DNA of 64,000 nucleotides from an uncultured Candidatus Saccharibacteria bacterium (GTDB taxonomy: Bacteria > Patescibacteriota > JAQUNI01), in contig CAZKRD010000002.1 in assembly GCA_964555185.1 (NCBI GenBank), positions 120,438 through 184,437 on the forward strand, in the 5' to 3' direction. Below the pieces are notes generated by a model. It was not told the DNA's origin and did no database searches. It saw only the letters and a list, made by a program, of their open reading frames with translations. Positions 2,235-31,546 of this stretch are shown in pieces (position 1 is the first letter of the stretch; each line of letters opens with the position of its first letter). Made by a program: the position numbers and the translations under genes.

Positions 2235-3455
2235 TCAGGAAATTTTACAAATATCCTTAGAATCCTTACTCATAGCTTTTGATAACATATTAACCCACCT
2301 TGAATCCCCCAATACTTTAAAAGTATGTAATGTATTGGGTTTAATCACAAAAATATCTCCTTTTTTTACAATAAAATCTTTTTTTAAATTAGTATTTATA
2401 TCTAGTAAGGACACCTTAATCCTGCCATCTATAATATAGAAGCCCTCTTTAGTCTTTTTATGGTAATGGTTTCCCCTTGTGCATCCTTTTAGAGACTCAA
2501 TATAATTTATTTCTTCCCACTTTTCACCTTGCATAATTCCTGTCAATTTGCCTCGACCATCAGTAAAAGAAAAATAAGGGCTGATTAAATTTCCAAAAAG
2601 ATAATGTAACGATTTTTTTACGCTGGGACAAGAATCTCCTAATATCTGCCTGCTATATCCAGTATTCAATGAACTATCTTGAGCAATTGACCCATCTAAT
2701 GGTTGCCTGCATCTCTTAATTAATGATTTGTCTTTTCCCATTACTTTAGCTACCTGAACAGCAAAATTATAACGAGAGATTTTTTTCTTGCCCGCGATAT
2801 GGATAATGCCTCTATAATCTTTATTAATTAATTTTTCTATTGAGTCAGTAAGATAGTCAATATAGGTTGGTGTATAAAAGACATCATCAAAAATATCCAC
2901 TGTTTTGTTTTGTTTCAGGCAGTCTAATAAAAAATTAAAAAAGTTTCCGCCTCTTCCGTATACATTAGCGGTGCGACAAATGATATAATTTTTCAATTCA
3001 TCTTGAATATCCTTTTCCGACATGGCTTTTGTTTTGCCATAATAAGTTTTAGGATTTGTTGTCTCACTTTCTTTGTAATTGCCTTTTTTTCCGTCAAAAA
3101 TATAGTCAGATGACATAAAAACCAGCTTTATATTGGGATTAACTTTTGCTATTGCCTTAATAAAATTTTTTGTGCCGTCAATATTAACTCTTTGGGCATT
3201 TTTTTGATCTTTTTCGCATTGAGCTAAACTACTAATGCCAGCTGCGTGGATTATTATCTTAGGATGAACTTTTTTAACAATATCCAATACTGCTTTGATG
3301 CTGGTAATGTCTAATTTATAGGTCTTTTCTTTTTTAGATTGATTTAAAGTTGAAGCATAAATATCATAATTATTATCATTCTGCAGCTTTTGTCTTAAGT
3401 TGGATCCAATGTAACCATCAGCTCCGGTAATTAATATTGTTTTTTTGTTTTCCAT
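2235..3455 (-). CDS. Fused NAD-dependent sugar epimerase/reductase (N-terminal) and cupin (C-terminal) domains; a sugar-nucleotide modifying enzyme
   Basis: The N-terminus has the Rossmann motif ILITGADGYIGSNL and an RmlD/epimerase-like fold, including YGKTK. The C-terminal ~130 aa look like an RmlC/FdtA-type cupin (HYHKKTKEGFYIIDGRIKV...). Confidence 0.55.
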   Translation of the reverse strand: MENKKTILITGADGYIGSNLRQKLQNDNNYDIYASTLNQSKKEKTYKLDITSIKAVLDIVKKVHPKIIIHAAGISSLAQCEKDQKNAQRVNIDGTKNFIKAIAKVNPNIKLVFMSSDYIFDGKKGNYKESETTNPKTYYGKTKAMSEKDIQDELKNYIICRTANVYGRGGNFFNFLLDCLKQNKTVDIFDDVFYTPTYIDYLTDSIEKLINKDYRGIIHIAGKKKISRYNFAVQVAKVMGKDKSLIKRCRQPLDGSIAQDSSLNTGYSRQILGDSCPSVKKSLHYLFGNLISPYFSFTDGRGKLTGIMQGEKWEEINYIESLKGCTRGNHYHKKTKEGFYIIDGRIKVSLLDINTNLKKDFIVKKGDIFVIKPNTLHTFKVLGDSRWVNMLSKAMSKDSKDICKIS

Positions 3456-3469
3456 AATTTATAAAGTTT

Positions 3470-4903
3470 TTATTTATTATTAGGTTTAGACATTTTAATA
3501 GAATAAGCTAATATTTTTTTAGTTGCTGTCAACAAGCCCTCTCTTTTGATTTCGCTTGTTATAAAAAAACCTAATGTCTTTGGCTTTTTGAACAATACAT
3601 GTCTATACCACATCTTCCAGCCCAAATGAAACATTTCCTCAATTTTATTTGCTGGATAATCCAGATATGAGACCGCGCTTTTTCCAGTTGCATCAAAATA
3701 ACCAGGATCTTCAGAGATTAGCCATCCGTTTGTCTTCGCCTTTTTGTAAAATGTCGTACCAGGATAGGGTGTGGCAATAGCTATTTGGACAAGATCAGGA
3801 TTTGCGGCAATAACATCTTGTAACATCTGGTAATCCTTCTTCCACGTTGATTTACACAAACCGACCATCAAATTGACATAAGATTTCATCCCTAATTTTT
3901 TACATTGCTTAATAATTTCTAAAAGCCTTTCTCTTTTCAAGGGCTTTGGAATTGCCTTCAAAACATCTTGATCTAAATGTTCTAAGCCATATTTGTAAGT
4001 CACACATCCCGCCCTGGCCAGAAGTTCCAATGTTTCGTCATCCACTAAGCCGTCACCCATACATAGCCACTTCACTTTTAGTTTTCTGTTCATTATTTCT
4101 CCACAGATCCCATCTATATGTTTTTTGCTAGAGACCATATTATCGTCATCAAAATAAATTTCGTCAAATTTATATTTTTTTTGTAAATATTCCATCTCAT
4201 CCACTACGCTCTTGGCACTCCTCATACGGTAGACGTGTTTTCCGTAAAAGGATTCTACATTGCAGAAGCTGCACTTAAGACGGCAGCCCCTTGATGAAAC
4301 CATAATAATATTTCTGCCGTAGCAAGAAGGCTCATTATAATATTCAATCGGGGTATCATCTCTTTCGGGGAAAGGCAACAAATCTAAATCCGTAACTAAA
4401 TCAGGTTTATCATATTTTCTTTTTTGTGCGCTGATGAAATTCTTAGGGAGAATTTTACGATCAGATTTAAAAAATTCCAAAAGAGAAAATTCGTATTCAC
4501 CAACAATAGAATAATCAACCCGTGTTTTTTTTAAACACTCAAAAGGGTAATTTGTCGCGTAATTACCCACAGCTATTTTTTTAATATTTTTATCAACTGA
4601 ATCAAGTAACCTTTTATCATCTTCTACGCTAATCCATGTTGGTTCACAGACAATATGAGTTGGTTTAATTTTTTCTATAAAATCAATTGTTTTCTCAAAA
4701 CTCCATTTCATAGCCACTGCATCTTTGAAAACAGCATCAAGTCCATTCCTTTTTAATAAAGATGTTGTATATCCCATAAACCACGGATAGGGATAATATC
4801 TTAAAACGGCAGATCCCTCTTTGGTGGTGTTATACCATCTTGATCCGGACTTTAATACTAAACCCGGTAAATTAAGTATGAGTATTTTGTGCATTTGAAT
4901 CAA
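3470..4903 (-). CDS. Class B (cobalamin-binding) radical SAM enzyme
   Basis: 477 aa. The motif SSRGCRLKCSFCNV is a CxxxCxxC. An N-terminal B12-binding-like region is present. Its architecture matches the 630..2204 protein. Confidence 0.75.
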   Translation of the reverse strand: MIQMHKILILNLPGLVLKSGSRWYNTTKEGSAVLRYYPYPWFMGYTTSLLKRNGLDAVFKDAVAMKWSFEKTIDFIEKIKPTHIVCEPTWISVEDDKRLLDSVDKNIKKIAVGNYATNYPFECLKKTRVDYSIVGEYEFSLLEFFKSDRKILPKNFISAQKRKYDKPDLVTDLDLLPFPERDDTPIEYYNEPSCYGRNIIMVSSRGCRLKCSFCNVESFYGKHVYRMRSAKSVVDEMEYLQKKYKFDEIYFDDDNMVSSKKHIDGICGEIMNRKLKVKWLCMGDGLVDDETLELLARAGCVTYKYGLEHLDQDVLKAIPKPLKRERLLEIIKQCKKLGMKSYVNLMVGLCKSTWKKDYQMLQDVIAANPDLVQIAIATPYPGTTFYKKAKTNGWLISEDPGYFDATGKSAVSYLDYPANKIEEMFHLGWKMWYRHVLFKKPKTLGFFITSEIKREGLLTATKKILAYSIKMSKPNNK

Positions 4904-4919
4904 TTTTTTAGAAAACTAA

Positions 4920-6137
4920 TTATATAATGCAATCGGACAGATTTTTAGTAAGTAATTTATTAATATCTATGGTTTTGACAAACTCTTTGATATTAGCTTG
5001 ATACTCCTTCTGGAGATTTTCATCCAAAATAAATCTTTTTATTACCTTGATGATTTCATCTTTTTTATTATTAACCGCCAAGCAAACTCTCTTCTTACCT
5101 AATTCTTGAACAATGGCTGGAACCTTGGAAGCAATAGTTGGTATTCCAAAGCTTAAATAATATTTCACCTTGGCTGGTTCAGTGTATTTCATAAAATTTT
5201 CTTCATCTTTGTACAAAGCTACTCCTAAAATATTATTCACCATAAGTTTTGTGAATTTTTTTCCCTCTTCCACAAATCCATGAAAAATAATATTTTTTTC
5301 TAAACCTAATTTTTTTGCCAATTTTTTAAAATACTCTTCGTCCGGGCCACTGCCAATCAAGTTTAATTTGATTTTTTTAAATTCTTTTGCGAGTTCAAGA
5401 ACCACACTAAATAATAGATCAAGTAGATGATATCTATTTATGACGCCGCAATACACCAAAGAGAACTTATTATTCTCATTAATCGGCTTAGAAATAAATT
5501 TTTTCACATCTATCCCTAGAGGAATAATTTGATAGTCATGTTTACGGCGATCAAAATACCCGTATTTTTCTCTACCAATTATATGGCCTAGGGTGGTAAA
5601 CCAGATTGAATCGCTATTATTTAAACAAAATTGATCAATAATATAAAACACCCTATTTAAATATCTATATATACCCGCTGGTGGTAAAGGAAAAAAATCC
5701 ATTACGCGATAGATAACAAAATCAACTTTCCCTAACTTTTTTAGGATTAATCCACACAAGGTGCAAAAATAGTTGACCCCCATAAAGATCCTCTTCTTCC
5801 GCCTTGGCCTTTTCCGCAATAGAATAAGTGCTTGAGATAAATAAATAAGATAATTTAACGGTAGAAACAAAAAATACAAAAATTTATTATCAAAAACAGG
5901 TATTGAAAAGATAACTCTCTCGGATACCTTTGATTTATCTCTATAATGAATTAACGAAGAATGCATTCCCCCTTTACTATGGGGAAATTTCCATTTAAGG
6001 TAGGTAAAGTCAGCAAAATTATTAATAAAGTAACTGACATAGTTTTCTAACCCAACCGGCACAAATGAACAAAATAATAGACTGTTTTTTTTGTCCATAG
6101 TATTGCTTTTTATATTTCCAGCTTTTCCAAAGAACAT
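4920..6137 (-). CDS. Glycosyltransferase, family 1 (GT4-like)
   Basis: 405 aa. The C-terminal GT1 signature is ...LVYCGVINRYHLLDLL...IGSGPDEEY...FHGFVEE.... Confidence 0.55.
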   Translation of the reverse strand: MFFGKAGNIKSNTMDKKNSLLFCSFVPVGLENYVSYFINNFADFTYLKWKFPHSKGGMHSSLIHYRDKSKVSERVIFSIPVFDNKFLYFLFLPLNYLIYLSQALILLRKRPRRKKRIFMGVNYFCTLCGLILKKLGKVDFVIYRVMDFFPLPPAGIYRYLNRVFYIIDQFCLNNSDSIWFTTLGHIIGREKYGYFDRRKHDYQIIPLGIDVKKFISKPINENNKFSLVYCGVINRYHLLDLLFSVVLELAKEFKKIKLNLIGSGPDEEYFKKLAKKLGLEKNIIFHGFVEEGKKFTKLMVNNILGVALYKDEENFMKYTEPAKVKYYLSFGIPTIASKVPAIVQELGKKRVCLAVNNKKDEIIKVIKRFILDENLQKEYQANIKEFVKTIDINKLLTKNLSDCII

Positions 6138-6309
6138 TCTAATTTAAATTCTTGCGTGGGAATAAAGCAATTTAGGTTGTTTAAGAATTTCATTAACTAT
6201 TAAACTGCTTCATTTCCTTTATATTAACCTAGGGGTAATTTTTTGTCCAACGCTTCTACTAAAAAGTACCTACACTTTTTAAGTGATTTTTTAAATAGTG
6301 AACATTTTC

Positions 6310-6975
6310 TCATCGATTTTTTAGATGACTATTATATCTGGTAAGATGACCCTGACTTCCCTTTTTATAACATAAAAGCTTTCCTGAACTTGGCTTGGGG
6401 ACGCAGATATTGGGTTTAGCTAGTTTTTTGTATTTTAAGAAAAAAAGAAGACCGGCACTCAAGGTGGGAATGAAAATCAAATTACTAACAATGCTATTTT
6501 TTAAGAAAGGTAAAGCCATGATATAACATTGAGTTAGCCCTGAAATTGTATGAGGATACATATTCCAGAGAAGCCAGACGCCAAAATTAGTATAAAGATA
6601 AAAAAACACAGAAGCTCCCATTCCCATTCCGGTCAAGCTTAAAATAAATTTATAATTGTACCCTCGTTTTTTTCGGATCAGCCAACCCAAAAAACCGATG
6701 ACTGCCCAGGCCGACCACGTAAAGAGCAGGATGGGATCATTGCCGATGTACATATCAGAGAGTGCGATCATCGTGAGAGGGACGATAAAAGTGTAAAGAC
6801 CACCCAAAAGCGACCCAGCCAAGAGAGTGCAGACGGTGATTGTTTCGATATTAGGAATGTCCTTTAAGAGAATCCGGCCTCCAGCGCCTAAAACAATCAA
6901 AAAGACAGCAAGTTTCATTTTTGTTTTGTTTAGATTTTTTGTTTCCATATTTTTTTCAAAAGGAACTCTCTTCAA
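6310..6975 (-). CDS. ECF-transporter S-component-like membrane protein; possibly a CbrT-type cobalamin substrate-capture component
   Basis: 221 aa, about 6 predicted TM helices, with the size and topology of ECF S-components. It overlaps the downstream DUF4430 gene by 20 nt. Confidence 0.4.
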   Translation of the reverse strand: MKRVPFEKNMETKNLNKTKMKLAVFLIVLGAGGRILLKDIPNIETITVCTLLAGSLLGGLYTFIVPLTMIALSDMYIGNDPILLFTWSAWAVIGFLGWLIRKKRGYNYKFILSLTGMGMGASVFFYLYTNFGVWLLWNMYPHTISGLTQCYIMALPFLKNSIVSNLIFIPTLSAGLLFFLKYKKLAKPNICVPKPSSGKLLCYKKGSQGHLTRYNSHLKNR

Positions 6976-7393
6976 ATTTAAATTCTATTTTGTCTCCGGG
7001 TGAAACTTTTTGTTCAGAAACCCCCACCGGCGCCATTTCGGAATTAAAATAGTAGAGCCAGTATTTGTTTTGCTCTCCGTTTTTGATACCGTCAATTGCC
7101 TCAACTAAAACACCAAAATCGTATTCTTTAATCTCGAGAGTAATCTTATTTTGACCTGCTAATTCTAAAAGGAGCGCATAAACAGTTTTTTCTTCGCTAA
7201 AGTATAGATCAAAACTTTTAGTTTTGTTATTGCCGAAGTCGATCGTAAAATTGATTTTTTCTTTTTCTTCAGTTTTTGGGATAGGTTCGGTTTTGGGTTC
7301 TTGGCTATTGGTGTCTTGTTCCGGACAGCCAGCTCCGGTGATGATCATTAAGGAGAGAAGCAAGGGGATTAAGAGAATAGTTTTTTTACACAT
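6956..7393 (-). CDS. DUF4430-family lipoprotein (transcobalamin-like fold; putative B12-binding)
   Basis: Signal peptide plus lipobox (ITGAGC). The C-terminal KYWLYYFNSE...VSPGDKIEFKF resembles the DUF4430 consensus (W.YYVNG...DGD.I.W.Y). Confidence 0.5.
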   Translation of the reverse strand: MCKKTILLIPLLLSLMIITGAGCPEQDTNSQEPKTEPIPKTEEKEKINFTIDFGNNKTKSFDLYFSEEKTVYALLLELAGQNKITLEIKEYDFGVLVEAIDGIKNGEQNKYWLYYFNSEMAPVGVSEQKVSPGDKIEFKFEESSF

Positions 7394-7432
7394 AAGTTGT
7401 TTTGAGTTTTAATTCAATAGTATATTCTACAA

Positions 7433-8266
7433 TTAAATCTGAAATAAATCAAATATTTTTTCCGAAAAAAAGAAGTTATCTTTTTTTAAAACGAAATTGT
7501 TATGGTGAGCCAGGATAGAGAACGGTGAGCGGTCTAAGAGAGGGGTCAGTCGTCGCAAGAGAGGATAAAGCCGATTAGTGATTCTAGGGGGATATTCAGG
7601 AATTAAGTTCGATTTCCAGCTTTGAACTATACTTAAGCCGTGTTTTTTAAAAAGAAGTTTAATCTCTGTGTCACCAAAAAGAACATTGTGTTTAGGAAAG
7701 CCCAAAGCAGCGGACAGGTACTCAAGATAAGCCAGTCGTCTTGGGGTTTTAAAGATAAACAATAGTCCATTGTCTTTTAATACTCTTTTTAGTTCGGTTA
7801 AGACCCCATTTAATTCCTCGGGTGGTTCCACGTGTTCAATGACGGCGTAGGCGGTAATCAGATCAAAGTGTTTATCCGGAAAAGGAATCTCCCGGTCATT
7901 GAAATGGCTAAAATTGATTCCGAATGTTTTGTGGAATTTTTCCCAGATTAGTTTTTGTTGAATCAGGGTGTCGCTAAAATTCGGATCTCTCTGGCTTTTG
8001 TTGTTTTTTGTGTCAATTGCTTGGATTTCTACTCCATTAATCAGTTGGGAGAGAATGATTGCGAAAATTCCTGATCCAGTGCCAAAGTCTAGGATCTTAA
8101 AGCCATTTTTTAGATATTTTGCGGTAAATCTCGCGTCCGAATAGACAGAATCCATATAGAGCCTGCCGGAGAGCATGTATTCAATAGATGTTAAATAAGA
8201 CCACTGATTTTTTTTGTTGTTGGCTTGGCTGACAACATTAAATATTTTTTGAGTGGTTGGCCTCAT
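7433..8266 (-). CDS. Class I SAM-dependent methyltransferase
   Basis: Motif I ILDFGTGSGIFAI. Acidic motif II is present. 277 aa. Confidence 0.65.
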   Translation of the reverse strand: MRPTTQKIFNVVSQANNKKNQWSYLTSIEYMLSGRLYMDSVYSDARFTAKYLKNGFKILDFGTGSGIFAIILSQLINGVEIQAIDTKNNKSQRDPNFSDTLIQQKLIWEKFHKTFGINFSHFNDREIPFPDKHFDLITAYAVIEHVEPPEELNGVLTELKRVLKDNGLLFIFKTPRRLAYLEYLSAALGFPKHNVLFGDTEIKLLFKKHGLSIVQSWKSNLIPEYPPRITNRLYPLLRRLTPLLDRSPFSILAHHNNFVLKKDNFFFSEKIFDLFQI

Positions 8267-8299
8267 TTGATTAAATTAAAACTGGGGCCTCTGCAAAAT

Positions 8300-9238
8300 C
8301 TAAGATTTTGCGGGGTTTATTTTAGGATGATATTTTTTAATCTTTGGCAGGATTTTGATTCCGGCAGCAAACCCCTTAAGATAAGGTCTAATTCGGTTCA
8401 ATTGAGCGTAACGGATAAAGATCAGACAGTAGGAACAAAGGAAGAGCGGGTTGAAGAGCAAGAGGAAAATCAGGAAGTTAGGCAGGGGCGCAAATTTTTT
8501 CATAAAGATTATTCGGTTGCGGGCAAAATAGTAGATCCGGTAGGCCGTGCTTCTGACCATCACATTTTCAGCGAGATCGGTAGGGATCGCGATATCGTGA
8601 TAGACTAAAGCTTCCGGACAAAACAGTACTTTGTAGCCATTGAGTTTTATTCTCATGCTCCAATCCGCTTCCCCGTAGCTCATTACGTAGCGAGGATCCA
8701 TCATTCCTATTTTTCCGATTATCTCTCTTTTTACCAGCCAGACATTAGGCGCATGGTCAGTTTCTTTTACTCTATTGTATTGTCCCCTGTCAATTTCGTT
8801 GAGGCCAATGTATTTTGTTCGGCTGGTTAAAAGGTTTACTTTGTTTCCGGCAAACCAGATCCGATTTGGCTCTTTCAAATAATACATTTTAGGGGCGACT
8901 AAGCCCGCTTGACTGTTGTTTTGAGCGAGCTCAACAAGTTTTTTTAAGAAGTTTGGATCAAAAACATTATCACTGTCAACAAAGCAAAGTAGATCACCGA
9001 CCGCCTGCTTGATTCCTTCGTTTCTAGCGATTACCGCTCCCCCATTAGTTTTCCGTTTTATTAATTTGGTTTGGGGAAACAATCTCTCGATCATCGCATT
9101 TGTTTTATCGGTTGAAGCATTGTCCACTATGATAATTTCAAAAGGGCCGTAACTGGCGCGGAGCAATGAATTTAGGCACCGCTTAAGTTTTGCTTGGCGG
9201 TTGTAGGTCGGGATAATAATTGAGACCAGCGGATCCAT
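8300..9238 (-). CDS. Glycosyltransferase family 2, with C-terminal TM segments
   Basis: N-terminal SIIIPTYNR, DNASTD, and the DxD region VDSDN. Confidence 0.7.
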   Translation of the reverse strand: MDPLVSIIIPTYNRQAKLKRCLNSLLRASYGPFEIIIVDNASTDKTNAMIERLFPQTKLIKRKTNGGAVIARNEGIKQAVGDLLCFVDSDNVFDPNFLKKLVELAQNNSQAGLVAPKMYYLKEPNRIWFAGNKVNLLTSRTKYIGLNEIDRGQYNRVKETDHAPNVWLVKREIIGKIGMMDPRYVMSYGEADWSMRIKLNGYKVLFCPEALVYHDIAIPTDLAENVMVRSTAYRIYYFARNRIIFMKKFAPLPNFLIFLLLFNPLFLCSYCLIFIRYAQLNRIRPYLKGFAAGIKILPKIKKYHPKINPAKS

Positions 9239-14866: not shown

Positions 14867-16342
14867 TTAGGTTTTTGTTTTTTTAAAGTCAATAAGATGG
14901 CCAATGACGGCTTTCGCTCCCCGGCCAAAGTATCTAAGATCGTCAAGATTACGGATTGAGATCACTTGGCGGAAGATAAATTCGGGATCAAAGGCTACCC
15001 TATAGGTTTTTTGGACTAATTCTTGCAGTTTTTCCTCTGAGATTGGACTTTTCATAATCGCTTCACGCATATCGTAGCGATTCCAGTCCAAGGTCTTAAG
15101 CCAGCCCCGCTCTTTGCATTCTGAAAAAAGCGGGGTGCCTGGATAAGGAATCACGATTGTTGCCTGCAGGGTTTTGGCATACCCTTTGCGTAAGAGGTAA
15201 CAGCCCAATTTCATAGTTGCGCGTGCGTCTTCCTCTTTTTCCCAAGAGTAACCGAACATAATGGTTAAGTGAGGAGAGAGTCCGGCTTTAGCCGCCCTTC
15301 GGCAAGACTTTATAATTTTCTCGACGGTCATATTTTTATTGATTCTATCTAAGGTTTTCTGGCTGGCCGATTCCAAACCAAAGAGCAGAAAACGGAAGCC
15401 CGCTTCTCTCATTAATTGATAGCCTTTGCTATCCACAGCGTCAAACCGTAGATTACAATCCAAGACCATTTTTTGATTGTAACCCTTTTTGATCATCCCT
15501 TGACAGAAGCTTTGAAGCCATTTTCCTGTTGGTAGAGTGCCGGAGTCTTCCATAATTTCTCGGACACCTAAATTAATTAATCTGCCCACTTCTTCTACGG
15601 CCAATTCCGGACTTCTTGTTCTGTGAGTCCCTGGTGGAAAAAGAATGTGATTCCAGGAACAGAAAGTACACTTGCCCCACCAGCAGTCGCGGCCGCTCAT
15701 CATATAAGTACCGGGCGTGCGTGAGAAATTGCCATTCTGATAAGCATAGAGTTGCCATTTGGTCAGTTCGCGGTCAATAAAAGGGAGAGAGTCAAGGTTG
15801 TGATTTAATTGAAAAGGGCCTGTGTTTTTAATCTTTCCGTTTTCGCGAAACCAAAAGCCAGGTTTAAGCTCCTTCCCTTTCGAAAGATGATTAGCAAGAT
15901 TTAAGAGCATAAAGTCATAGTCGCCGCCGGTTAGGATATAGTCAACAGAAGAGTTCTCCAAGGATTCTTTAGGTAAAGATGTAACATGGTCACCCATCAG
16001 GGTAATTTCCAATTTCCAATTTCCAATTTCCAAATTTTTCTTTTTCAATTCGTCAATTATTTTCCAGTGATGCTTTACGGTTGGAGTTTTGGTTTCAATC
16101 GCGACGAGATCGGGTTTTTCTTTCAATATCCTTTTTTTCCATTCAGGGTAACTTAATTTTTCCGCGATACCGTCATCCCAAAAAATACCATACCCTTCTT
16201 TTTTTAACAGAGTAGCGGCATAGGCCGGCACCATTGGATAGATATAGGTGCAGGAGGAAAAAGTCTGATATTGCCGGTTTTGGCCGATCATCGGCGTCCC
16301 TTGTATTTTCGGCAGGGGTGGATAAGATATCGCAATTTTCAT
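14867..16342 (-). CDS. Class B (cobalamin-binding) radical SAM enzyme with atypical Cys spacing
   Basis: 491 aa. B12-binding-like N-terminus. The cluster motif is SGRDCWWGKCTFCSW, a CX4CX2C rather than CX3CX2C. It contains an in-frame (AATTTCC)x4 heptanucleotide repeat. Confidence 0.65.
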   Translation of the reverse strand: MKIAISYPPLPKIQGTPMIGQNRQYQTFSSCTYIYPMVPAYAATLLKKEGYGIFWDDGIAEKLSYPEWKKRILKEKPDLVAIETKTPTVKHHWKIIDELKKKNLEIGNWKLEITLMGDHVTSLPKESLENSSVDYILTGGDYDFMLLNLANHLSKGKELKPGFWFRENGKIKNTGPFQLNHNLDSLPFIDRELTKWQLYAYQNGNFSRTPGTYMMSGRDCWWGKCTFCSWNHILFPPGTHRTRSPELAVEEVGRLINLGVREIMEDSGTLPTGKWLQSFCQGMIKKGYNQKMVLDCNLRFDAVDSKGYQLMREAGFRFLLFGLESASQKTLDRINKNMTVEKIIKSCRRAAKAGLSPHLTIMFGYSWEKEEDARATMKLGCYLLRKGYAKTLQATIVIPYPGTPLFSECKERGWLKTLDWNRYDMREAIMKSPISEEKLQELVQKTYRVAFDPEFIFRQVISIRNLDDLRYFGRGAKAVIGHLIDFKKTKT

Positions 16343-23003: not shown

Positions 23004-23252
23004 GTGATCACCCGGAATTGGTGGCATGATTCAAAAGGCATGATTCCAAATTCCCAATTTAAAAGAAAACTTTTTTATCAAATAATTTATGATCTATTCA
23101 TCATCGCTTTTGTGTTTTATCTGATTTTTATTTGGATTGATCGCGCTTTTAAAGATTATATCAGTCAGTATTTTAATCTTAATATTGTTTTGGTGATTGT
23201 TTTTGTCGCCGGCTTTTTGACCGTGATCCACAGAGCTAAAAAGAAAAAATAA
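23004..23252 (+). CDS. Small membrane protein, 2 TM
   Basis: 82 aa with two hydrophobic helices. Confidence 0.3.
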   Translation: MITRNWWHDSKGMIPNSQFKRKLFYQIIYDLFIIAFVFYLIFIWIDRAFKDYISQYFNLNIVLVIVFVAGFLTVIHRAKKKK

Positions 23253-23299
23253 AAAGCTTCAAATAAAAAATAAAGGCCTTTTCATTAAACCTTTATTTT

Positions 23300-23710
23300 T
23301 TATACAGAGGGTTCACCGTATATATTCTTTATTTGGAGAAAAAATTGTTTATTATTTTTTATTTTCTGGGCACGGGCCTCTAAGGGGCAGATGTAAATTT
23401 TTTCTGGCCCCAGGATATCTCTAACCGTGTTTTGAGCGTTTATTTTAATCCTGTTTCTTTTAAGCAGACTTACAGCTGGCTTGGTAGAAACCAAAGTGAT
23501 TACTTGGGAAATTATTTTTGCATAGACAATCAGTTTGGCGGAGGCTAGGCCCACAACCTTATCGTATAGAGTACATCCGTCAAGACGGCCCTTGTATTTA
23601 TTAACACAATCAATAAGTGGTTTTAAATATGGTTGCTTGGAATGATAGATGATTTCCCCATTTTTAATTAAGAGCAGAGAATATTTTTTAAAACAATCAT
23701 AGTCTGGCAT
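23300..23710 (-). CDS. DUF1893 (TM1506-like) family protein
   Basis: IKNGEIIY...LIVYAKI...CPLEARAQ resembles TM1506-family proteins, which have a cytidine-deaminase-like fold and unknown function. Confidence 0.4.
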   Translation of the reverse strand: MPDYDCFKKYSLLLIKNGEIIYHSKQPYLKPLIDCVNKYKGRLDGCTLYDKVVGLASAKLIVYAKIISQVITLVSTKPAVSLLKRNRIKINAQNTVRDILGPEKIYICPLEARAQKIKNNKQFFLQIKNIYGEPSV

Positions 23711-23725
23711 TTTAAGGGATTCCTT

Positions 23726-24268
23726 TTATTTTTTTGAAAGAAGGCCCGAGAGGCATAAATAATGCGCCCCTATCCCCCAAATAATGTTAGAGGCGGCCAG
23801 TGATAAGATTAACCCGATAATGAATCTCATCTCAAGATGGACCAGATAATAGTCAGTAATAATCAGCCAAGGCAGCTGCAGACAGTAAGCAAATAAAACA
23901 GCCAGGAGCAGAGGTAGTTTTAATCGCACAAACAAGCCGACAAAGAAGCCGAGAATAACATTGCCGACCAAGAGATAGGGATTGCTCATTATGATAGCAG
24001 AGTAGATTGAGCCAACAAGTCCTGACAGGGCTCCGCCCTTGGGTCCGTAAATTGCGGCTGCAATAAAAATCGCTAGTTGGAAAAAATGAATTTTAAAACC
24101 CCAAGGGGTAGAGAGATTGAAAAGACCCAATAAATTAGGCAGGACAATTAGAGACAAAAATAGAATCAAATTTTTTCGATTCCATTTAATATCAAAAGAG
24201 ATTTGAGAGCGGGCCCCACACAAAAGCGAAACTTTTGTGGGGTTCACTTTAATATATTCCGCGTTCAT
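23726..24268 (-). CDS. Small polytopic membrane protein (ECF S-component-like)
   Basis: 180 aa, 5-6 TM helices, glycine-rich helix GPKGGALSGLVGSIYSAI. Confidence 0.35.
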   Translation of the reverse strand: MNAEYIKVNPTKVSLLCGARSQISFDIKWNRKNLILFLSLIVLPNLLGLFNLSTPWGFKIHFFQLAIFIAAAIYGPKGGALSGLVGSIYSAIIMSNPYLLVGNVILGFFVGLFVRLKLPLLLAVLFAYCLQLPWLIITDYYLVHLEMRFIIGLILSLAASNIIWGIGAHYLCLSGLLSKK

Positions 24269-24271
24269 TTG

Positions 24272-24994
24272 TTACTTTAAATATATATGCTTATAGGTTC
24301 TTACTTTTTTTTGCAATTCTTTTTTTTCTTTTTCAACACTATTAATCTCTTTTGTGCCGGTACAGGCTGGATAACGGGAACAGCCGTAGAATGTACTGGA
24401 TCCGCCGCGCGAGGAGCGTTTTTTCATCATTGCTCCGCAGACAGGGCAGGTTACTTCCTCGATAAAATATAGGACCTTAGCGCTCCACATATCCGCCATA
24501 TGGAGGAGGACAGCCAAGGGTTTTATATTTTTGACAAAGTCCTTGAAATTGCTCCAGCCCCCTTCGGCATAGAGCAGGGCGTTAAGTTCGTTATCAGAGA
24601 GACCAATTCCAGAGCGGGCAAGTTCATTTAAGGTCCAGACTTCGGCAGGCAGATCAATGTCTTCCCAGCGCCAGCTATTTTTAGGATCTTCTTTGTAGGT
24701 GACAATTTTGGCAAAATCATGCAGATAGGCGGCTACGATCATTTCTTCTTTGGTAAAGTTAGGTTTCTGATAACTTATGTTATTATAGGGCAAGAATTTA
24801 GCCAGCCGGATCATCGTTTCCAAGACCTCGGTTGTATGCAAAAGGAGTCCGCCCGTGAAGTTATGATGATAGTTTTGAGCCGCGGGCGCGCGGTCAAAAT
24901 CCTTTTTATATTCTTGGGCGAATTTGGCGAGTTTGGTTTTAGCAAGGTGGGCGTATAGATCGAGCATAATTATTACATTGTCCCATTGCTTCAT
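24272..24994 (-). CDS. HD-domain phosphohydrolase fused to a C-terminal topoisomerase-type C4 zinc ribbon
   Basis: H...HD motifs (HHNFTGGLLLHT, YLHDFAK). The C-terminal CPVCGAMM...YGCSRYPACTGT matches the zf-C4 topoisomerase ribbon. Confidence 0.5.
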   Translation of the reverse strand: MKQWDNVIIMLDLYAHLAKTKLAKFAQEYKKDFDRAPAAQNYHHNFTGGLLLHTTEVLETMIRLAKFLPYNNISYQKPNFTKEEMIVAAYLHDFAKIVTYKEDPKNSWRWEDIDLPAEVWTLNELARSGIGLSDNELNALLYAEGGWSNFKDFVKNIKPLAVLLHMADMWSAKVLYFIEEVTCPVCGAMMKKRSSRGGSSTFYGCSRYPACTGTKEINSVEKEKKELQKKVRTYKHIYLK

Positions 24995-25016
24995 TGTTGT
25001 TTTTAAAACAATGAGC

Positions 25017-25367
25017 CTAACAGGTTAAATGGAGACAAGCGACTATGTTTTTATTTTGAGAGGAAAGCTTATTATAAATTTTGACTGCTTTTTTTGTATT
25101 AGAGATAATAACCTTGTCTATTTTTTGTTCGAGTTTATCGGTTAAGATCGGGTCTAGCTGCATTACATTATAATAGCCCGTACCGATGATTAGAATTTCT
25201 GGTTTGATTTCTAAAATTTCTGCAAAATTTTCTAAAACAGGGCGATGGTGATCAGTACAATACCAGACCCTTGTTTTTTCGGGGGAAACAATAAGATCAC
25301 CTTTGGTGTAAGTTTCACCGTTTACAGTAATCTTTCCGAATTGGTAGTCTTCGATAATTCCTCCCAT
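25017..25367 (-). CDS. Mth938-like (DUF498) domain protein
   Basis: 116 aa. ...PEILIIGTGYYNVMQLDP... resembles the Mth938 fold family. Confidence 0.35.
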   Translation of the reverse strand: MGGIIEDYQFGKITVNGETYTKGDLIVSPEKTRVWYCTDHHRPVLENFAEILEIKPEILIIGTGYYNVMQLDPILTDKLEQKIDKVIISNTKKAVKIYNKLSSQNKNIVACLHLTC

Positions 25368-25412
25368 TTTAAATTGTTACAGCATTGACCGATCGGTCAG
25401 TTTTGTAACGTT

Positions 25413-25892
25413 TTATTTTTTAAACAAGATTCCTCCTAAGGGATGGTAGGTAAAGACAATAAAACAAACCAGGAAAATTAAGAAGAGGAGAGTGATGATG
25501 AGAATAGAGATGCAATTGGGTTGAACCTTAGCAAGATAGTATTCTAAAATTTGGGCGATGATTATAGCCAGAGCCACGCTCAAAGCGCTCAAGGTGAAGC
25601 CTTGAGGGAAAATAAGCATAAAGATTACAACCAGGATCGGGACGGCTACAATCGCGGCAAGTTTGCCAAAAAAGATATTGTCTTGTTCGCCAAATTTGGG
25701 GATCAGGAATTCAATCAAGCCATAGATCAGCACAGCCCAGAAGGCAATTTTGGCAATTTCAAAAATGCTGCCATTATTTGCGCAGAATAATTTAGTTCCG
25801 CCGCAGTAGCGCAGAAAGGAGACCAGAAAGAGGATAATAATCACAGCGAGGATTTTGTAAAGGAGCAGTTTCTTCCGAGATAGTTTTTTCAT
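25413..25892 (-). CDS. Small polytopic membrane protein
   Basis: 159 aa, 4-5 TM helices. Confidence 0.35.
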   Translation of the reverse strand: MKKLSRKKLLLYKILAVIIILFLVSFLRYCGGTKLFCANNGSIFEIAKIAFWAVLIYGLIEFLIPKFGEQDNIFFGKLAAIVAVPILVVIFMLIFPQGFTLSALSVALAIIIAQILEYYLAKVQPNCISILIITLLFLIFLVCFIVFTYHPLGGILFKK

Positions 25893-26012
25893 CTTGATTT
25901 GCCCTACCCTCCATTTTTAGGGGATTAACATTCTTTAGTTCTTGTTTAATATCTTATTTATATTTTAGCAAATATTTAATTGGAAGACAATTTTTTGACA
26001 AAACTTAGAAGA

Positions 26013-27308
26013 TTATCTCCCAATCCCGACATAATTAAACCCCATTCTTTTAAGCTCTTTTGGTTTTAGAATGTTGCGGGCGTCTATGATGTTTGGTTTA
26101 CGCATAAGACTTTTTATTTTTTTGAGATTTATTTTTTTAAATTCAGGCCAAGGGGTGGCAATCACAAGAGCATCAGCCCCTTTCGAGCAAGTATAGGGAT
26201 TTTGAGAATAGCGGATTCTACTGCCTAAGATCTTTTTAGCGTTTGAAGCAGCTATTGGATCATAGGCTTGAATTTTCGCTTTGCGCTTTAAGAGGAGGTT
26301 GATAATATCAATTGCCGGGGATTCGCGCACATCATCGGTATTTTCTTTGAAGGAGAGTCCCCAGACGGCAATTTTTTTATTTTGGAGTCTGCCGGCAAGG
26401 GCGTTTTTGATTTTGCTGACCACAATTTCCCGTTGGTGTTTGTTAATTTGCATCGCAGCGTCAATTAATCTAAACCAGTAGCCCCCGGCTTGGGCAAAGT
26501 AATAGAGGGCAGAAACATCTTTCGGAAAACAGGAGCCGCCATAGCCCGGGCCTGCCTGCAGGAATTTTTCACCGATCCGAGAGTCTAAACCAATACCCTT
26601 GGCTACCATTTCCACATCAGCGTCATAGTTGTCGCAGAGATTCGCGATTTCGTTGATAAAGGATATTTTGAGGGCCAAAAAGGAGTTAGCGGCGTATTTA
26701 ATCATTTCTGCTGATTCTAGATTGGTGATTACGATCGGCGCCTTGAATTTCTTGTAGAGTTCTTTCATTATTTTGATCGCGGGGCTTTTCTGATTTTCAA
26801 AGCCTAGGACGATCCGGTCAGGGTGGAGAAAATCATTAATCGCTGTGCCCTCTCTTTGAAATTCAGGGTTAGAGACAACATCAAATCTGCCTTTATAGTT
26901 TTTGCGGATTTCTTTACGGACTAATTTACCCGTACCCACCGGCACGGTGCTTTTATCTACAATTACTTTGTAGTCTTTAAGGTTTTTTCCTAAATCATGA
27001 GCGACCCTTAAGACGTATTTTAAGTCCGCTTTTCCGTTTTGGTCTTGAGGCGTGCCTACGGCAATAAACACAACTTCCGCATCCTTGATTCCTTGGACAA
27101 GCGAGGTAGTGAAAGAGATTCTTTTTGCTTTCAGGTTTCTCCTTAACATTTCCGGCAGGCACTCTTCATAGATAGTAGGGATGCCTTTTTTCAGTTTGGC
27201 GATTTTATTCTTATCCAGATCAACACAGGATACCCTGTGGCCTAAATTGGCAAAACAGACACCTACACCAAGACCGACATAACCGGTACCAATGATTGCT
27301 AACTTCAT
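26013..27308 (-). CDS. ugd: UDP-glucose 6-dehydrogenase
   Basis: MKLAIIGTGYVGL, catalytic GGSCFPKD, 431 aa. Confidence 0.8.
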   Translation of the reverse strand: MKLAIIGTGYVGLGVGVCFANLGHRVSCVDLDKNKIAKLKKGIPTIYEECLPEMLRRNLKAKRISFTTSLVQGIKDAEVVFIAVGTPQDQNGKADLKYVLRVAHDLGKNLKDYKVIVDKSTVPVGTGKLVRKEIRKNYKGRFDVVSNPEFQREGTAINDFLHPDRIVLGFENQKSPAIKIMKELYKKFKAPIVITNLESAEMIKYAANSFLALKISFINEIANLCDNYDADVEMVAKGIGLDSRIGEKFLQAGPGYGGSCFPKDVSALYYFAQAGGYWFRLIDAAMQINKHQREIVVSKIKNALAGRLQNKKIAVWGLSFKENTDDVRESPAIDIINLLLKRKAKIQAYDPIAASNAKKILGSRIRYSQNPYTCSKGADALVIATPWPEFKKINLKKIKSLMRKPNIIDARNILKPKELKRMGFNYVGIGR

Positions 27309-28409: not shown

Positions 28410-29804
28410 TTAGTTTAGGTACTCTTCTAACGCTTCTTCCCATCTCCGCAGTTTCGGCAGCTTGGTATTGATTAAAACCGAACACAAGGGCCGCTTTGCT
28501 TTTGTCTCGTATTCCCGGCTGCTGATTGGCTTTATTTTAACCGGAATGTTTTTCAAAGCGAAAATTTTGCGCGCGAACTGATACCAATTAGTTTTTCCTT
28601 GGTTTGTGACGTGATAAATGCCAAAGGGCTTGTTTTGTTCAATAAGCTGTTTTGTCTCTCGAGCTAAATCACGGGCAAAGGTAGGCTTCCCCCACTGGTC
28701 ATTGACGACCTTCAGTTTAACATTGCTTTTTGATAATTGCAACATTTTTTTAACAAAATTTTCTCCTCTCTTGCCAAACATCCAAGAGCTGCGGATTAGG
28801 TAGTATTGATCAGTATTGCGCCGCAAGAGCGCCTCGCCCAAGAACTTTGATTTTCCATAGACATTGATTGGGTTGGGCTGGGCGGTTTCTTTATAACCCT
28901 TGCGATTTTTACCGTCAAAGACATAATCCGTGGAGTAGTGGACTAAAGTTGCGTTTATTCTTTTGGCAATTTGCGCTAAATACCCTACCGCTTTACCATT
29001 TATCCGCAAAACCTGCTTTTGGTTTGATTCGGCCCTTTCTACGTTAGTATAGGCAGCAGCGTTGATAATGATTGCTGGTTTAAGTTCCAGGATTCTTTGC
29101 TGTAGTTTTTTCTTGTTGGTAATATTTAATTTTTTCTTGTCCCAGGCGGTTAGCCTGTAGTTTTGAAATTCTTTTTTTAAGCACGAGCCAAGCATGCCTC
29201 GGGCGCCCAAGATCAAGACTTTTTTTTGAAAATTTGCAAGCAGTTTGTTGCGCGCCCGCACCAAGTCAGGATGGAGCCCCCTCTCTTTTTTGATAATCTG
29301 TTTCATATTTTCATCAAAAGCATTAAGCAGGGCTTGGTCTAGAGATTTGGAAGCTATTTTCAGGATGATTTTTGAGCCAGCCCAAATTTTGGGAGTGGGC
29401 GCGATAATATCCGAGAGATAAATAATTTTATCCAGGAAACTCATACAGGGTTTAGGCACGCAGTGCCTCTCAATTGCTTGGAGGATTTCTTTGTCGTGAA
29501 TGCCAAACTTTTTTCTAGAAAGGGATGCGCCGACAGGCGCATGGAGAAGGCTTGGATGGTTTTTGGTAAAGGAATCAATTTTGATCCGAAATTTGCAAGC
29601 GAGTTTCAAAAGTCTTTCTGAATTTAAATCACGCGCCATATCATGGATCAGGCCGGCAAGACGGACTTTTTCTAGGTTGATCCCTTTGTGGATCCGGGCC
29701 AATTTCTCCGCTGTTTTTACTACTTCCAAACTATGAAAAAATCTATCCCTCGATAGATTCCGCTGCAGGTAAGATTTGATTCTTTCTAGGTTTAAATCAT
29801 TCAT
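28410..29804 (-). CDS. rmlD: Fusion of a YqeK-type HD hydrolase (N-terminal) with dTDP-4-dehydrorhamnose reductase (C-terminal)
   Basis: N-terminal ~190 aa: HSLEVVKTAEKLA...AGLIHDMAR...IERH (YqeK/HD family). C-terminal: VLILGARGMLGS...YSTDYVFDG...NVYGKSK...DQWGKPT (RmlD). Confidence 0.7.
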   Translation of the reverse strand: MNDLNLERIKSYLQRNLSRDRFFHSLEVVKTAEKLARIHKGINLEKVRLAGLIHDMARDLNSERLLKLACKFRIKIDSFTKNHPSLLHAPVGASLSRKKFGIHDKEILQAIERHCVPKPCMSFLDKIIYLSDIIAPTPKIWAGSKIILKIASKSLDQALLNAFDENMKQIIKKERGLHPDLVRARNKLLANFQKKVLILGARGMLGSCLKKEFQNYRLTAWDKKKLNITNKKKLQQRILELKPAIIINAAAYTNVERAESNQKQVLRINGKAVGYLAQIAKRINATLVHYSTDYVFDGKNRKGYKETAQPNPINVYGKSKFLGEALLRRNTDQYYLIRSSWMFGKRGENFVKKMLQLSKSNVKLKVVNDQWGKPTFARDLARETKQLIEQNKPFGIYHVTNQGKTNWYQFARKIFALKNIPVKIKPISSREYETKAKRPLCSVLINTKLPKLRRWEEALEEYLN

Positions 29805-29997: not shown

Positions 29998-30992
29998 TAT
30001 TTATGCTTATATTGCTTTCGATAGTATTTAAGATATTCTCCCGACTTGATCTTCTTCCACCACCATTCATTCTCTTTGTACCATTCTATGGTTTGCCGCA
30101 TCGCTTCTCCAAATTGATATTGCGGCTGCCAGCCCAGTTTCTGAACCTTAGTAGAATCCAGGGCGTAACGGCGATCATGACCCGGCCGGTCGGAAACCCG
30201 CTTAATCATTTCTTTGCCTTTGCCCAAAGTCTTCAAGATTAGATTGGTGATGTAAAGATTGGTTTTTGGATTATCACCGCCAATATTATAAATCTCCCCT
30301 ATTTTGCCTTTGTGGAGAACAAGATCTAAGGCAGAGCAGTTATCTAAAACATAAATCCAATCACGGACATTTTTGCCATCACCGTAAAGCGGCACCTTTT
30401 TTCCTTCAATGAGATTGGTGACGAAAAGAGGGATTAGTTTTTCCGGGTATTGATAAGGCCCAAAATTATTAGAGCTTCTCGTGATCAAAACCGGCAAACC
30501 AAATGTGCGGTGATAAGCGCGGACCATCAAATCCCCTCCTGTTTTGGAAGCAGAATAGGGATTGTTGGGAGCAAGCTCGGTTTTTTCAGTTGCTTTTCCG
30601 CGAGCCAGACTGCCGTAAACTTCATCCGTGCTTACCTGTAAATATTTCTTAATTTTGAATTCTTTTACTGCTTCCAATAAGTTTTTCGTGCCCAAGATGT
30701 CTGTGCGAATAAAGTCATCCGCGCCCATAATTGAGCGATCCACATGGGTTTCTGCAGCGAAGTTTACAATCATATTCACATTGCGAGCCGCTTGTTTCAC
30801 TGTTTTCCAATCCGCGATATCTCCTTTGACAAATTTATAGCGCGGGGTTTTGATCCCCCGTAGATTGTCTAGATTGCCGCAGTAAGTCAGTTTGTCTAAA
30901 TTAACCACGCGGTAGCGCGGGTATTTTTTTAAAATATAGCGGATGAAGTTGGAACCGATAAAACCCGCGCCGCCGGTTACGAGTAATTTCAT
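29997..30992 (-). CDS. rmlB: dTDP-glucose 4,6-dehydratase
   Basis: LVTGGAGFIGSNF, YSASK, 331 aa, classic RmlB. Confidence 0.85.
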   Translation of the reverse strand: MKLLVTGGAGFIGSNFIRYILKKYPRYRVVNLDKLTYCGNLDNLRGIKTPRYKFVKGDIADWKTVKQAARNVNMIVNFAAETHVDRSIMGADDFIRTDILGTKNLLEAVKEFKIKKYLQVSTDEVYGSLARGKATEKTELAPNNPYSASKTGGDLMVRAYHRTFGLPVLITRSSNNFGPYQYPEKLIPLFVTNLIEGKKVPLYGDGKNVRDWIYVLDNCSALDLVLHKGKIGEIYNIGGDNPKTNLYITNLILKTLGKGKEMIKRVSDRPGHDRRYALDSTKVQKLGWQPQYQFGEAMRQTIEWYKENEWWWKKIKSGEYLKYYRKQYKHK

Positions 30993-31546
30993 AATATTTT
31001 TTTGTGGAGACAGTATTTATAAAGGAGGGCTAGAGTTGGTGAACCGATAATCTTATTTTCGATAATCATTTTTTGGATCTCTTTAAGACTAAATTTTTTT
31101 ACTTCCGAGATTTCAGAAGGATCGGGAATTTTATCAATTTTTTTTAAGTCTTGAGCAAGATAAATATAGGAATATTGCGGCAAGACAGTTCCTGATACAT
31201 AGGAGATGCCAATTTTGGTCCACTTTTGAGCAGAAAGGCAAGCTTCTTCCTCGAGTTCCCTTTTGGCGGCATTCAGATAGGTTTCTCTTTTTGAATCTTT
31301 GTGTCCCATGGGCAATTCCCAGGTATATTCCCCCAAAGTGTAGCGATACTGACGGACAAGCCAGAGTTTTCCATTTCTGTCTTCAGGGATGATTGCGACA
31401 AAGGGATCTTTTTTAATATAGTAATAGTTTGTTTTGCGTCCTAAAGGGTTCAACACCTGGTCCTTGTAAAGATCAAGATAAGCGCAGTGGTAGATCCGGC
31501 GAGAGGAAATTTTTTGCCAAGGCTGTTTTTGATGGATTTTCGGCAT
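30989..31546 (-). CDS. NUDIX hydrolase (sugar-nucleotide/ADP-ribose pyrophosphatase-like)
   Basis: NUDIX box ...GHKDSKRETYLNAAKRELEEEA... Its stop overlaps the rmlB start by 4 nt. Confidence 0.6.
   Translation of the reverse strand: MPKIHQKQPWQKISSRRIYHCAYLDLYKDQVLNPLGRKTNYYYIKKDPFVAIIPEDRNGKLWLVRQYRYTLGEYTWELPMGHKDSKRETYLNAAKRELEEEACLSAQKWTKIGISYVSGTVLPQYSYIYLAQDLKKIDKIPDPSEISEVKKFSLKEIQKMIIENKIIGSPTLALLYKYCLHKKIL

Follow-up and report, generated by a model that had tools for sequence, protein, structure and literature searches.

Do five closely spaced genes of an uncultured bacterium work together, or have separate genes merely come to lie side by side? The genes in question occupy the minus strand of a 64-kb window, as we call the whole stretch of DNA analysed here, which comes from a 355-kb metagenomic scaffold (ENA ERZ23486238, BAEC19-1 scaffold_19); relatives of the window carry the label Candidatus Torokbacteria, a lineage of the candidate phyla radiation (CPR). 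Read in the direction of transcription, they encode m159, a multi-pass membrane protein without a known family (159 aa; 25413–25892); a Mth938/DUF498-domain protein (116 aa; 25017–25367); HDZn, an HD-domain protein with a C-terminal zinc ribbon (240 aa; 24272–24994); a membrane protein predicted to have the fold of an energy-coupling factor (ECF) S component (180 aa; 23726–24268); and a TM1506/DUF1893 protein of deaminase-like fold (136 aa; 23300–23710). The crystal structure of TM1506/DUF1893 dates from the 2000s, and the function of the family is still unassigned. A sequence-only reading of the window had proposed the five genes as a candidate novel module, in which a phosphorylated metabolite or vitamin precursor would be imported and then dephosphorylated or modified. 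Its gene coordinates, with spacers of 15, 3, 22 and 45 bp counted from the TM1506 end, were reproduced exactly, and Pfam and NCBIfam searches reproduced all of its domain calls (DUF1893, S-component-like, HD with zinc ribbon, Mth938-like and membrane protein).

Presence and absence of the five genes in relatives

We consider it probable, at roughly 0.6, that three separable units have come to lie side by side in this lineage and that the five genes are not one functional module, because relatives of the window gain and lose these units independently: the S-component and TM1506 genes (the first and second gene of what we call the cassette), the m159 and HDZn genes, and the Mth938 gene. No lineage other than the window's own, at species level, showed the complete five-gene set, and Torokbacteria-like relatives show subsets of two, three or four of the genes. 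In four of the loci compared (L003–L006), whose HDZn is 72% identical to that of the window, the order is m159, HDZn, S component, TM1506, without Mth938, and the same four-gene form recurs in L012, L094 and L096. In loci of Torokbacteria CG09 (L090–L093; HDZn likewise 72% identical), m159 and HDZn are followed by a strong terminator and convergent genes, and tblastn found no remnant of either cassette gene there. A metagenome scan added L095, L097, L099 and L100, which have HDZn without the cassette, with m159 upstream wherever the contig reaches; HDZn followed by a terminator, with no cassette, is the arrangement in L090–L093, L095, L099 and L100. In L101 the Mth938 gene (54% identity) separates m159 from HDZn; in L104 (47% identity) it precedes HDZn, and the contig ends before the m159 position. 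It is missing in L003, L012, L090–L097 and L100. Finally, L003 and L100 are collinear at about 78–80% DNA identity on both sides of a single indel, 1064 bp in one and 110 bp in the other, which holds exactly the S-component and TM1506 genes.

Judged by gene set and gene order together, the five-gene arrangement is not conserved in related or unrelated genomes, and the novel module proposed by the sequence-only reading thereby fails the refuting condition which that reading had itself set. The cassette is the sole broadly conserved unit of the three, its two genes being found side by side in many anaerobes, bacterial and archaeal; m159 and HDZn are a Torokbacteria-specific pair that is also found without the cassette; and the Mth938 gene, present in some relatives only, is dispensable. 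As to spacing, 56 of the 60 open reading frames (ORFs) of at least 100 aa in the window lie on the minus strand, and the same-strand gaps have a median of 33 bp, with 60% of them at 45 bp or less. Since short gaps are the default in this genome, tight spacing by itself is no evidence for a functional operon. For the annotation of CPR genomes this means that tight co-directional clusters should not be taken as functional modules without comparative support.

The cassette of S-component-fold protein and TM1506

With TM1506 as query, a word-indexed search detected nothing beyond the query itself; a full HMMER search of 1.84 billion representative sequences found 519 relatives. Scanning 185,579 species genomes with a pattern based on a 38-sequence subset of the alignment yielded 80 TM1506 loci from Syntrophales/Smithella, Woesearchaeota, Nanoarchaeota, other archaeal metagenome-assembled genomes (MAGs) and one Torokbacteria-like MAG (L012). 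At 49 of these 80 loci an S-component homologue lies immediately upstream on the same strand (E values between 1e-15 and 1e-67, and below 1e-30 in every case except one truncated ORF), and most of the junctions between the two genes overlap by 4–7 nt. The reverse look-up, starting from the S component, found TM1506 downstream with a 4-nt overlap in three cases out of three (a Thermoproteota MAG, L108 and L109/L110). HDZn and m159 occur at only one of the 80 loci (L012) and Mth938 at none; that is, DUF1893 and Mth938, whose co-occurrence the sequence-only reading had suggested as a check, are found together at none of these loci. Gene order and overlap thus indicate that the S-component and TM1506 genes are functionally tied, as a predicted translationally coupled cassette.

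Clustering the neighbours at the 80 loci revealed only one other recurrent family, a DUF362 protein with a 4Fe-4S domain, which is present at 24 loci, mainly of Syntrophales plus two archaeal MAGs. Its members have about 350–370 aa (L032 8004–9062 and L021 4870–5979 are examples; range L018–L063). The DUF362 + 4Fe-4S dicluster gene sometimes takes the place of the S component directly upstream of TM1506. DUF362 is absent from the window, and the DUF362 gene of L108 is only distantly related to the family. DUF362 falls in the same Pfam clan as the N-terminal domain of LarA, a binder of a nicotinic-acid-derived cofactor (PMC11770544). The remaining neighbours of the pair are lineage-specific housekeeping genes (among them ribonucleotide reductase, aminotransferase, diaminopimelate epimerase and deoxyhypusine synthase). 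Deoxyhypusine synthase adjoins the pair in five loci, of which four are archaeal (L019, L038, L057 and L074, in the last at 2586–3590) and one is a Smithella MAG (L048).

Riboswitches offered no shortcut to the substrate, because Rfam detected none in the whole window at the gathering threshold, none of relevance at E ≤ 1 in window positions 23200–26100, and none tied to the cassette on 29 bacterial loci that carry the pair; the upstream search that the sequence-only reading had recommended was therefore negative. The one match, to an nhaA-I riboswitch in a deltaproteobacterial MAG (L067 7317–7365, minus strand; 45.2 bits against a gathering threshold of 37), is some 3 kb away on the downstream side of the pair and unrelated to it.

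The 180-aa membrane protein of the window scores below the cut-offs of the S-component models in both Pfam (PF12822, 20.5 bits against 30.7) and NCBIfam (TIGR04518, 22.2 bits against 60). Across its family, which counts at least 318 homologues, PF12822 is matched by 48 of 50 members (E ≤ 1e-3, best 5e-8) and PF07155 by 40 of 50, and NCBI names a few homologues 'ECF transporter S component'. When the AlphaFold2 (AF2) model of the window protein (mean predicted local distance difference test score, pLDDT, 85.7) was compared with the PDB by Foldseek, ranks 1–29 were all S components (RibU, FolT, PanT, ThiT, BioY and HmpT), with probabilities of 0.90–1.0 (most of them 1.0), TM scores of 0.46–0.65 and about 155–180 aligned columns. 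The model thus assigns the protein a full-length, six-helix ECF S-component fold, and the label 'S-component-like' of the sequence-only reading is borne out by the Foldseek ranks together with the family-wide Pfam matches. Four residues, His-61, Asn-96, Asn-103 and Asp-139, are invariant in the family.

The proteins of the window family, of about 165–180 aa, share this fold with the S components of Group II ECF transporters (RibU, FolT, ThiT, BioY and PanT). Unlike these, the window protein stays below the Pfam S-component thresholds and has no EcfT or EcfA gene nearby, and unlike vitamin S components it has neither a riboswitch nor a known vitamin-pathway partner that we could find beside its gene. 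No ABC Walker A or LSGGQ signature is present in any ORF of at least 100 aa in the 64-kb window, and no ABC or CbiQ family (the A and T components) recurs within ±6 kb of the pair at the 80 loci. In S components such as ThiT and RibU, an AxxxA motif in the first transmembrane helix docks to EcfT. The first long helix of the present family (residues 31–47, consensus LPNLLG) has no conserved AxxxA, and a nearly invariant Ala-66-x3-Ala-70 lies in the second helix as counted in the 180-aa model. The arrangement resembles that of solitary S components and of PnuC–NadR, in that the carrier stands away from an ATPase or T component and beside a cytoplasmic protein possibly acting on the solute.

The TM1506 protein matches Pfam PF08973 (70.6 bits, cut-off 27, E = 1e-19) and, in profile searches of the PDB, entries 1vk9 and 9e9a (E about 1e-22); a literature search for a paper on 9e9a found none. 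Aligning 103 representatives revealed that Asp-50, Gly-54 and Glu-111 are invariant and that Cys-108 and Ser-24 are at least 90% conserved. Asp-50 of the window protein aligns to chain residue 68 of 1vk9, which we infer to be native Asp-56, assuming the usual 12-residue expression tag. TM1506 has been described as a protein of deaminase-like fold that is ADP-ribosylated at Asp-56 and holds an unidentified ligand in a conserved pocket (Iyer et al., 2011; PMC3239186), and the conserved Asp here corresponds to that modified residue. Among long TM1506 representatives, fusions of a Nudix domain to TM1506 and of TM1506 to an ArgZ_C/LOR-SDH Rossmann domain are found, both of them rare, and no Rosetta-stone fusion of an S component to TM1506 is found. 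Other long TM1506 proteins include a tandem-TM1506 lipoprotein and a DUF4381–TM1506 protein (fusion set P0137, P0146, P0108 and P0119). A plasmid-borne origin was considered and dropped, as tblastn of TM1506 against PLSDB gave no match.

The pairing of TM1506 with a membrane protein is not new, since Iyer et al. (2011; PMC3239186) noted operons of Firmicutes and Bacteroidetes that link TM1506 to a redox enzyme as well as to a '5TM protein' that they predicted to be a channel. There as here the TM1506 gene stands beside that of a small multi-pass membrane protein, and in both cases a frequent third partner is a redox protein, an aldo/keto reductase with a rubredoxin ribbon in their neighbourhood and the DUF362 + 4Fe-4S protein in ours. 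We infer that their '5TM protein' and our S-component family are the same membrane family; whereas their partner was a predicted channel of Firmicutes and Bacteroidetes, ours has an S-component fold and occurs in CPR, DPANN, other archaeal MAGs and Syntrophales. What is new here is a CPR member of the known pair, the identification of its partner as an ECF-S-fold carrier, and, in HDZn, a rare HD/zinc-ribbon architecture with a lineage-specific membrane partner. That the obligate-looking partner of TM1506 should be an S-component-fold carrier common to DPANN, CPR and syntrophs narrows the search to the uptake and processing of a small nucleotide-like nutrient, and the pair offers a simple two-gene system for expression and assay.

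The window S component is up to 66–69% identical to DPANN archaeal proteins, and its 66% identity to an archaeal copy compares with 50% to the syntenic copy of L012. In a neighbour-joining tree that carries no support values, a point that weighs against leaning on it, the S components of the window and of L012 group with an archaeal (largely DPANN) clade, apart from the Syntrophales clades. This placement, together with the clean indel between L003 and L100, suggests that the cassette may have moved horizontally between DPANN archaea and CPR bacteria; we regard this as a lead, not a result.

HDZn, m159 and Mth938

HDZn ends in a Zn_ribbon_Top1 domain (PF01396; residues 181–218; 45.8 bits, cut-off 32, E = 5e-12), and the HD domain that precedes it (about residues 25–175) has weak sub-threshold matches to HD and TraI_2 in Pfam and weak matches to YhaM and MobH in NCBIfam. 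By comparison with its orthologues, its true start is probably Met-10 (24967). A homologue search gave 16 proteins, in all of which the HD metal ligands (His-43, His-44, His-53, His-92, Asp-93, His-165 and Asp-168) and the zinc-ribbon cysteines (Cys-183, Cys-186, Cys-205 and Cys-211) are invariant. HDZn shares the motif PAAxxHHNFxGGL with YhaM/Cbf1, and the metal-site motifs HHNFxxGL...HD...H...D are common to HDZn and the HD domains of YhaM/Cbf1 and MobH/TraI_2. The AF2 model of HDZn (pLDDT 83.8) has only one significant fold match in the PDB, the cryo-EM structure of YhaM (9h3f_A, E = 1.3e-4, probability 1.0, 178 columns). YhaM is a 3'-5' exoribonuclease and single-stranded DNA (ssDNA) 3'-deoxyribonuclease needed for DNA uptake (PMC11347170, PMC12107432). 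HDZn is not a YhaM orthologue, because it has no oligonucleotide-binding (OB) fold and fails the YhaM equivalog model (NF010007; 23.4 bits against a cut-off of 460, model positions 135–199 only): where YhaM has an N-terminal OB fold, HDZn instead has a C-terminal topoisomerase-I-type C4 zinc ribbon. It is also much shorter (231–240 aa), and its family is limited to Torokbacteria-like CPR and a few relatives. A further match is to the phage family phrog_5889 (E = 5e-14), whose function is unassigned.

More distant homologues of HDZn (L007–L009, 37–43% identity) adjoin RadC, FolD and serine hydroxymethyltransferase (SHMT), and the other four genes are absent from those loci. We therefore describe HDZn, from its motifs and model, as a YhaM-type HD domain, a putative metal-dependent nuclease or phosphohydrolase, joined to a topoisomerase-type ribbon that presumably binds ssDNA, and predict that it would most likely trim the 3' ends of single-stranded nucleic acid. 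A role in single-stranded nucleic acid processing is the best inference because the YhaM-type HD domain, the ribbon and the RadC neighbour of the distant relatives point the same way. The sequence-only reading had cast the HD protein as a phosphatase for an imported metabolite, which the YhaM/MobH nuclease type of its HD domain and the RadC-linked homologues speak against; its alternative thought, that the zinc ribbon signals nucleic-acid targeting, fits these same observations. The YhaM-type nuclease group, lately implicated in DNA uptake, thus gains in HDZn an architecture that is new to it.

In detail, the distant HDZn homologue lies directly upstream of RadC, then FolD and SHMT, in L007 (298–660 and 5418–6080) and L009 (921–1586), and a T4SS_pilin gene is found near the homologue in L007. 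A defence-system reading was set aside, as none of the five proteins of the cluster has a PADLOC match.

The m159 protein has no match in Pfam, NCBIfam, PADLOC or PHROG, and its hydropathy profile shows about 4–5 hydrophobic segments. Its orthologues (66–87% identical) lie upstream of HDZn, either next to it or separated from it by Mth938 alone, at all Torokbacteria-like loci with enough contig (L099 and L104 end before this position). No relatives of m159 were detected outside Torokbacteria-like loci, L012 being the only one among the 80 TM1506 loci that has it. The possibility that m159 is a second S component was rejected, at an hhalign probability of 0.3 against the S-component family. The spacer between the m159 and Mth938 genes holds a palindrome (25376–25409; GTTACA-aaac-TGACCGATCGGTCA-atgc-TGTAAC); the corresponding spacer of L101 is homologous, and the composite palindrome is not kept there.

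The Mth938 protein matches Pfam DUF498 (PF04430) end to end (75.8 bits, cut-off 33, E = 3e-21, model positions 1–109 of 109), like the other single-domain proteins of about 115 aa in this family (MTH938, PH1505, human AAMDC and NDUFAF3). Sequence matches in the PDB are MTH938 itself (1ihn, E = 1e-6), PH1505 and human AAMDC. We know of no function for the prokaryotic members of Mth938/DUF498, and the gene has here simply come to lie between two unrelated neighbours, in part of the relatives.

Competing explanations and the surrounding locus

What might the cassette do? We propose that the S-component-fold carrier would bind and translocate a small micronutrient that resembles a nucleotide, a compound of the pyridine-nucleotide or ADP-ribose class being the most plausible, and that TM1506 would capture or convert the imported compound at the cytoplasmic face through its pocket of invariant Asp, Cys and Glu, a form of metabolic trapping by analogy with PnuC–NadR; the carrier may need no ECF ATPase module of its own. 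An NAD/ADP-ribose-type ligand is our best guess, on hints that are weak but concordant: the correspondence of Asp-50 to the ADP-ribosylated Asp, the Nudix and ArgZ_C fusions, and the clan shared by DUF362 and the LarA N-terminal domain. That the carrier imports such a compound and that TM1506 captures or converts it is offered tentatively, as something possible rather than likely. The import-and-salvage idea of the sequence-only reading survives in part, in that transport plus processing is reasonable for the S component and DUF1893, because of the S-component fold and the adjacency at 49 of 80 loci and in three of three reverse look-ups; it does not hold for the five genes.

A more far-reaching version of this proposal is improbable in our view. 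In it, the cassette would be a self-sufficient, ATPase-free scavenger in which a solitary carrier is coupled to TM1506, which covalently captures or converts a pyridine-nucleotide/ADP-ribose-type compound through the invariant Asp; it would have been exchanged between DPANN and CPR as a shared toolkit of host-dependent, cofactor-auxotrophic episymbionts, and in Torokbacteria it may be wired behind a YhaM-like ssDNA nuclease that scavenges nucleic acids. Should the cassette prove to be such an ATPase-independent scavenger of cofactor precursors, common to archaeal and bacterial episymbionts, the finding would gain in interest.

A number of observations count against the division into three units or against import and trapping by the cassette. 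The cassette directly follows HDZn in two Torokbacteria lineages, with spacers of 3–63 bp, so HDZn and the cassette may be co-transcribed and share some local functional link. TM1506 can act alone, since 31 of its 80 loci have no S component, and a shared ECF module may yet be encoded elsewhere in the genomes, outside the window and the ±6 kb around the pair. The NAD/ADP-ribose idea stands on one crystal-structure observation and rare fusions; no salvage enzyme of a known pathway was consistently found next to the pair, and likewise no riboswitch. The HDZn family is tiny, at 16 proteins, and its nuclease activity is a prediction.

Transport and trapping has one main rival, in essence the view of Iyer et al. 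(2011). TM1506 would here be no enzyme for the imported solute but a subunit that regulates or gates the membrane protein, as a sensor of NAD/ADP-ribose or as a switch that ADP-ribosylates itself, and the membrane protein might be a channel rather than a vitamin importer. It draws on the ADP-ribosylation of TM1506 at Asp-56, the ligand in its pocket and the links to the '5TM' and redox proteins, from which a control of transport was proposed (PMC3239186), and the invariant Asp of the family matches the modified residue. Translational coupling suggests a stoichiometric complex, and a redox link is suggested by the Fe-S/DUF362 gene that recurs beside TM1506. However, the membrane protein folds like substrate-binding S components and not like a known channel, and TM1506 is also found on its own, in a secreted lipoprotein of tandem repeats and in fusions with enzymes, a distribution that fits a ligand-processing domain equally well. 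On this balance we hold the regulatory role to be rather unlikely.

The original proposal, that all five genes are one salvage operon in which import is followed by dephosphorylation by the HD protein and modification by DUF1893, with Mth938 and m159 assisting, is harder still to maintain. The genes are co-directional with spacers of 3–45 bp, and HDZn adjoins the cassette in a second Torokbacteria lineage as well. At the borders of the cluster, a promoter-like site on the minus strand (25962–25990; TTGTCT, a 17-nt spacer with TG, and TAAAAT; a pattern match only, from a consensus scan) is placed in the 120-bp gap upstream of the m159 gene, and an A/T-flanked hairpin with a T-tract lies between convergent genes at about 23255–23303. 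This hairpin comes right after the TM1506 stop, and its 17-bp stem runs into a U-tract (RNAfold on a 70-nt stretch, dG −14.8 kcal/mol); it is likely a bidirectional intrinsic terminator that closes the transcription unit, and together the two features are compatible with one transcript across the five genes. But spacing of this kind is the genomic default, the full set is confined to the window's species-level lineage, the cassette occurs without HDZn, m159 and Mth938 at 48 of its 49 loci, and the m159–HDZn pair stands without the cassette in L090–L093, L095 and L100; moreover, the HD domain is of the nuclease type (YhaM/MobH) and carries an ssDNA-type zinc ribbon. The pattern of presence and absence has already largely refuted the five-gene salvage operon, which we now regard as highly improbable.

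It could also be that the cassette, perhaps with the whole cluster, serves the synthesis of cell-envelope glycans, for example by supplying or modifying a nucleotide-activated precursor. The five genes are embedded in a large locus of rhamnose (rfb), UDP-sugar, glycosyltransferase and flippase genes, and the pair of L108 belongs to a tight same-strand run (3635–8593) of a HAD hydrolase gene, a sugar-phosphate nucleotidyltransferase (NTP_transferase), the S component, TM1506, a CapK_C-like adenylate-forming enzyme and a DUF362 gene without an Fe-S domain, which sits in a glycan locus, flanked by genes for glycosyltransferases and a flippase. These are just two of more than 50 contexts, and the Syntrophales and most archaeal loci have unrelated housekeeping neighbours. 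Since glycan loci take up a good deal of CPR and DPANN genomes, chance embedding is likely, and a dedicated glycan role appears very unlikely. The three-unit reading, with the cassette as the conserved unit, is the one that we carry forward.

Several features of the surrounding glycan locus are recorded here in their own right; a tRNA search of the window found none. A radical SAM (S-adenosylmethionine) protein of 491 aa is encoded at 14867–16342 (minus strand), in the glycosyltransferase/flippase part of the locus. At 28410–29804 (minus strand), a 464-aa protein has an N-terminal HD domain (YqeK-like by eye) fused to dTDP-4-dehydrorhamnose reductase (RmlD), and this fusion is kept in L003 (478 aa), inside the rhamnose operon. 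A NUDIX hydrolase gene at 30989–31546 (minus strand) lies within the dTDP-rhamnose cluster, between genes for a RmlB-like dehydratase and a RmlC-like epimerase, and its position there is conserved in L003.

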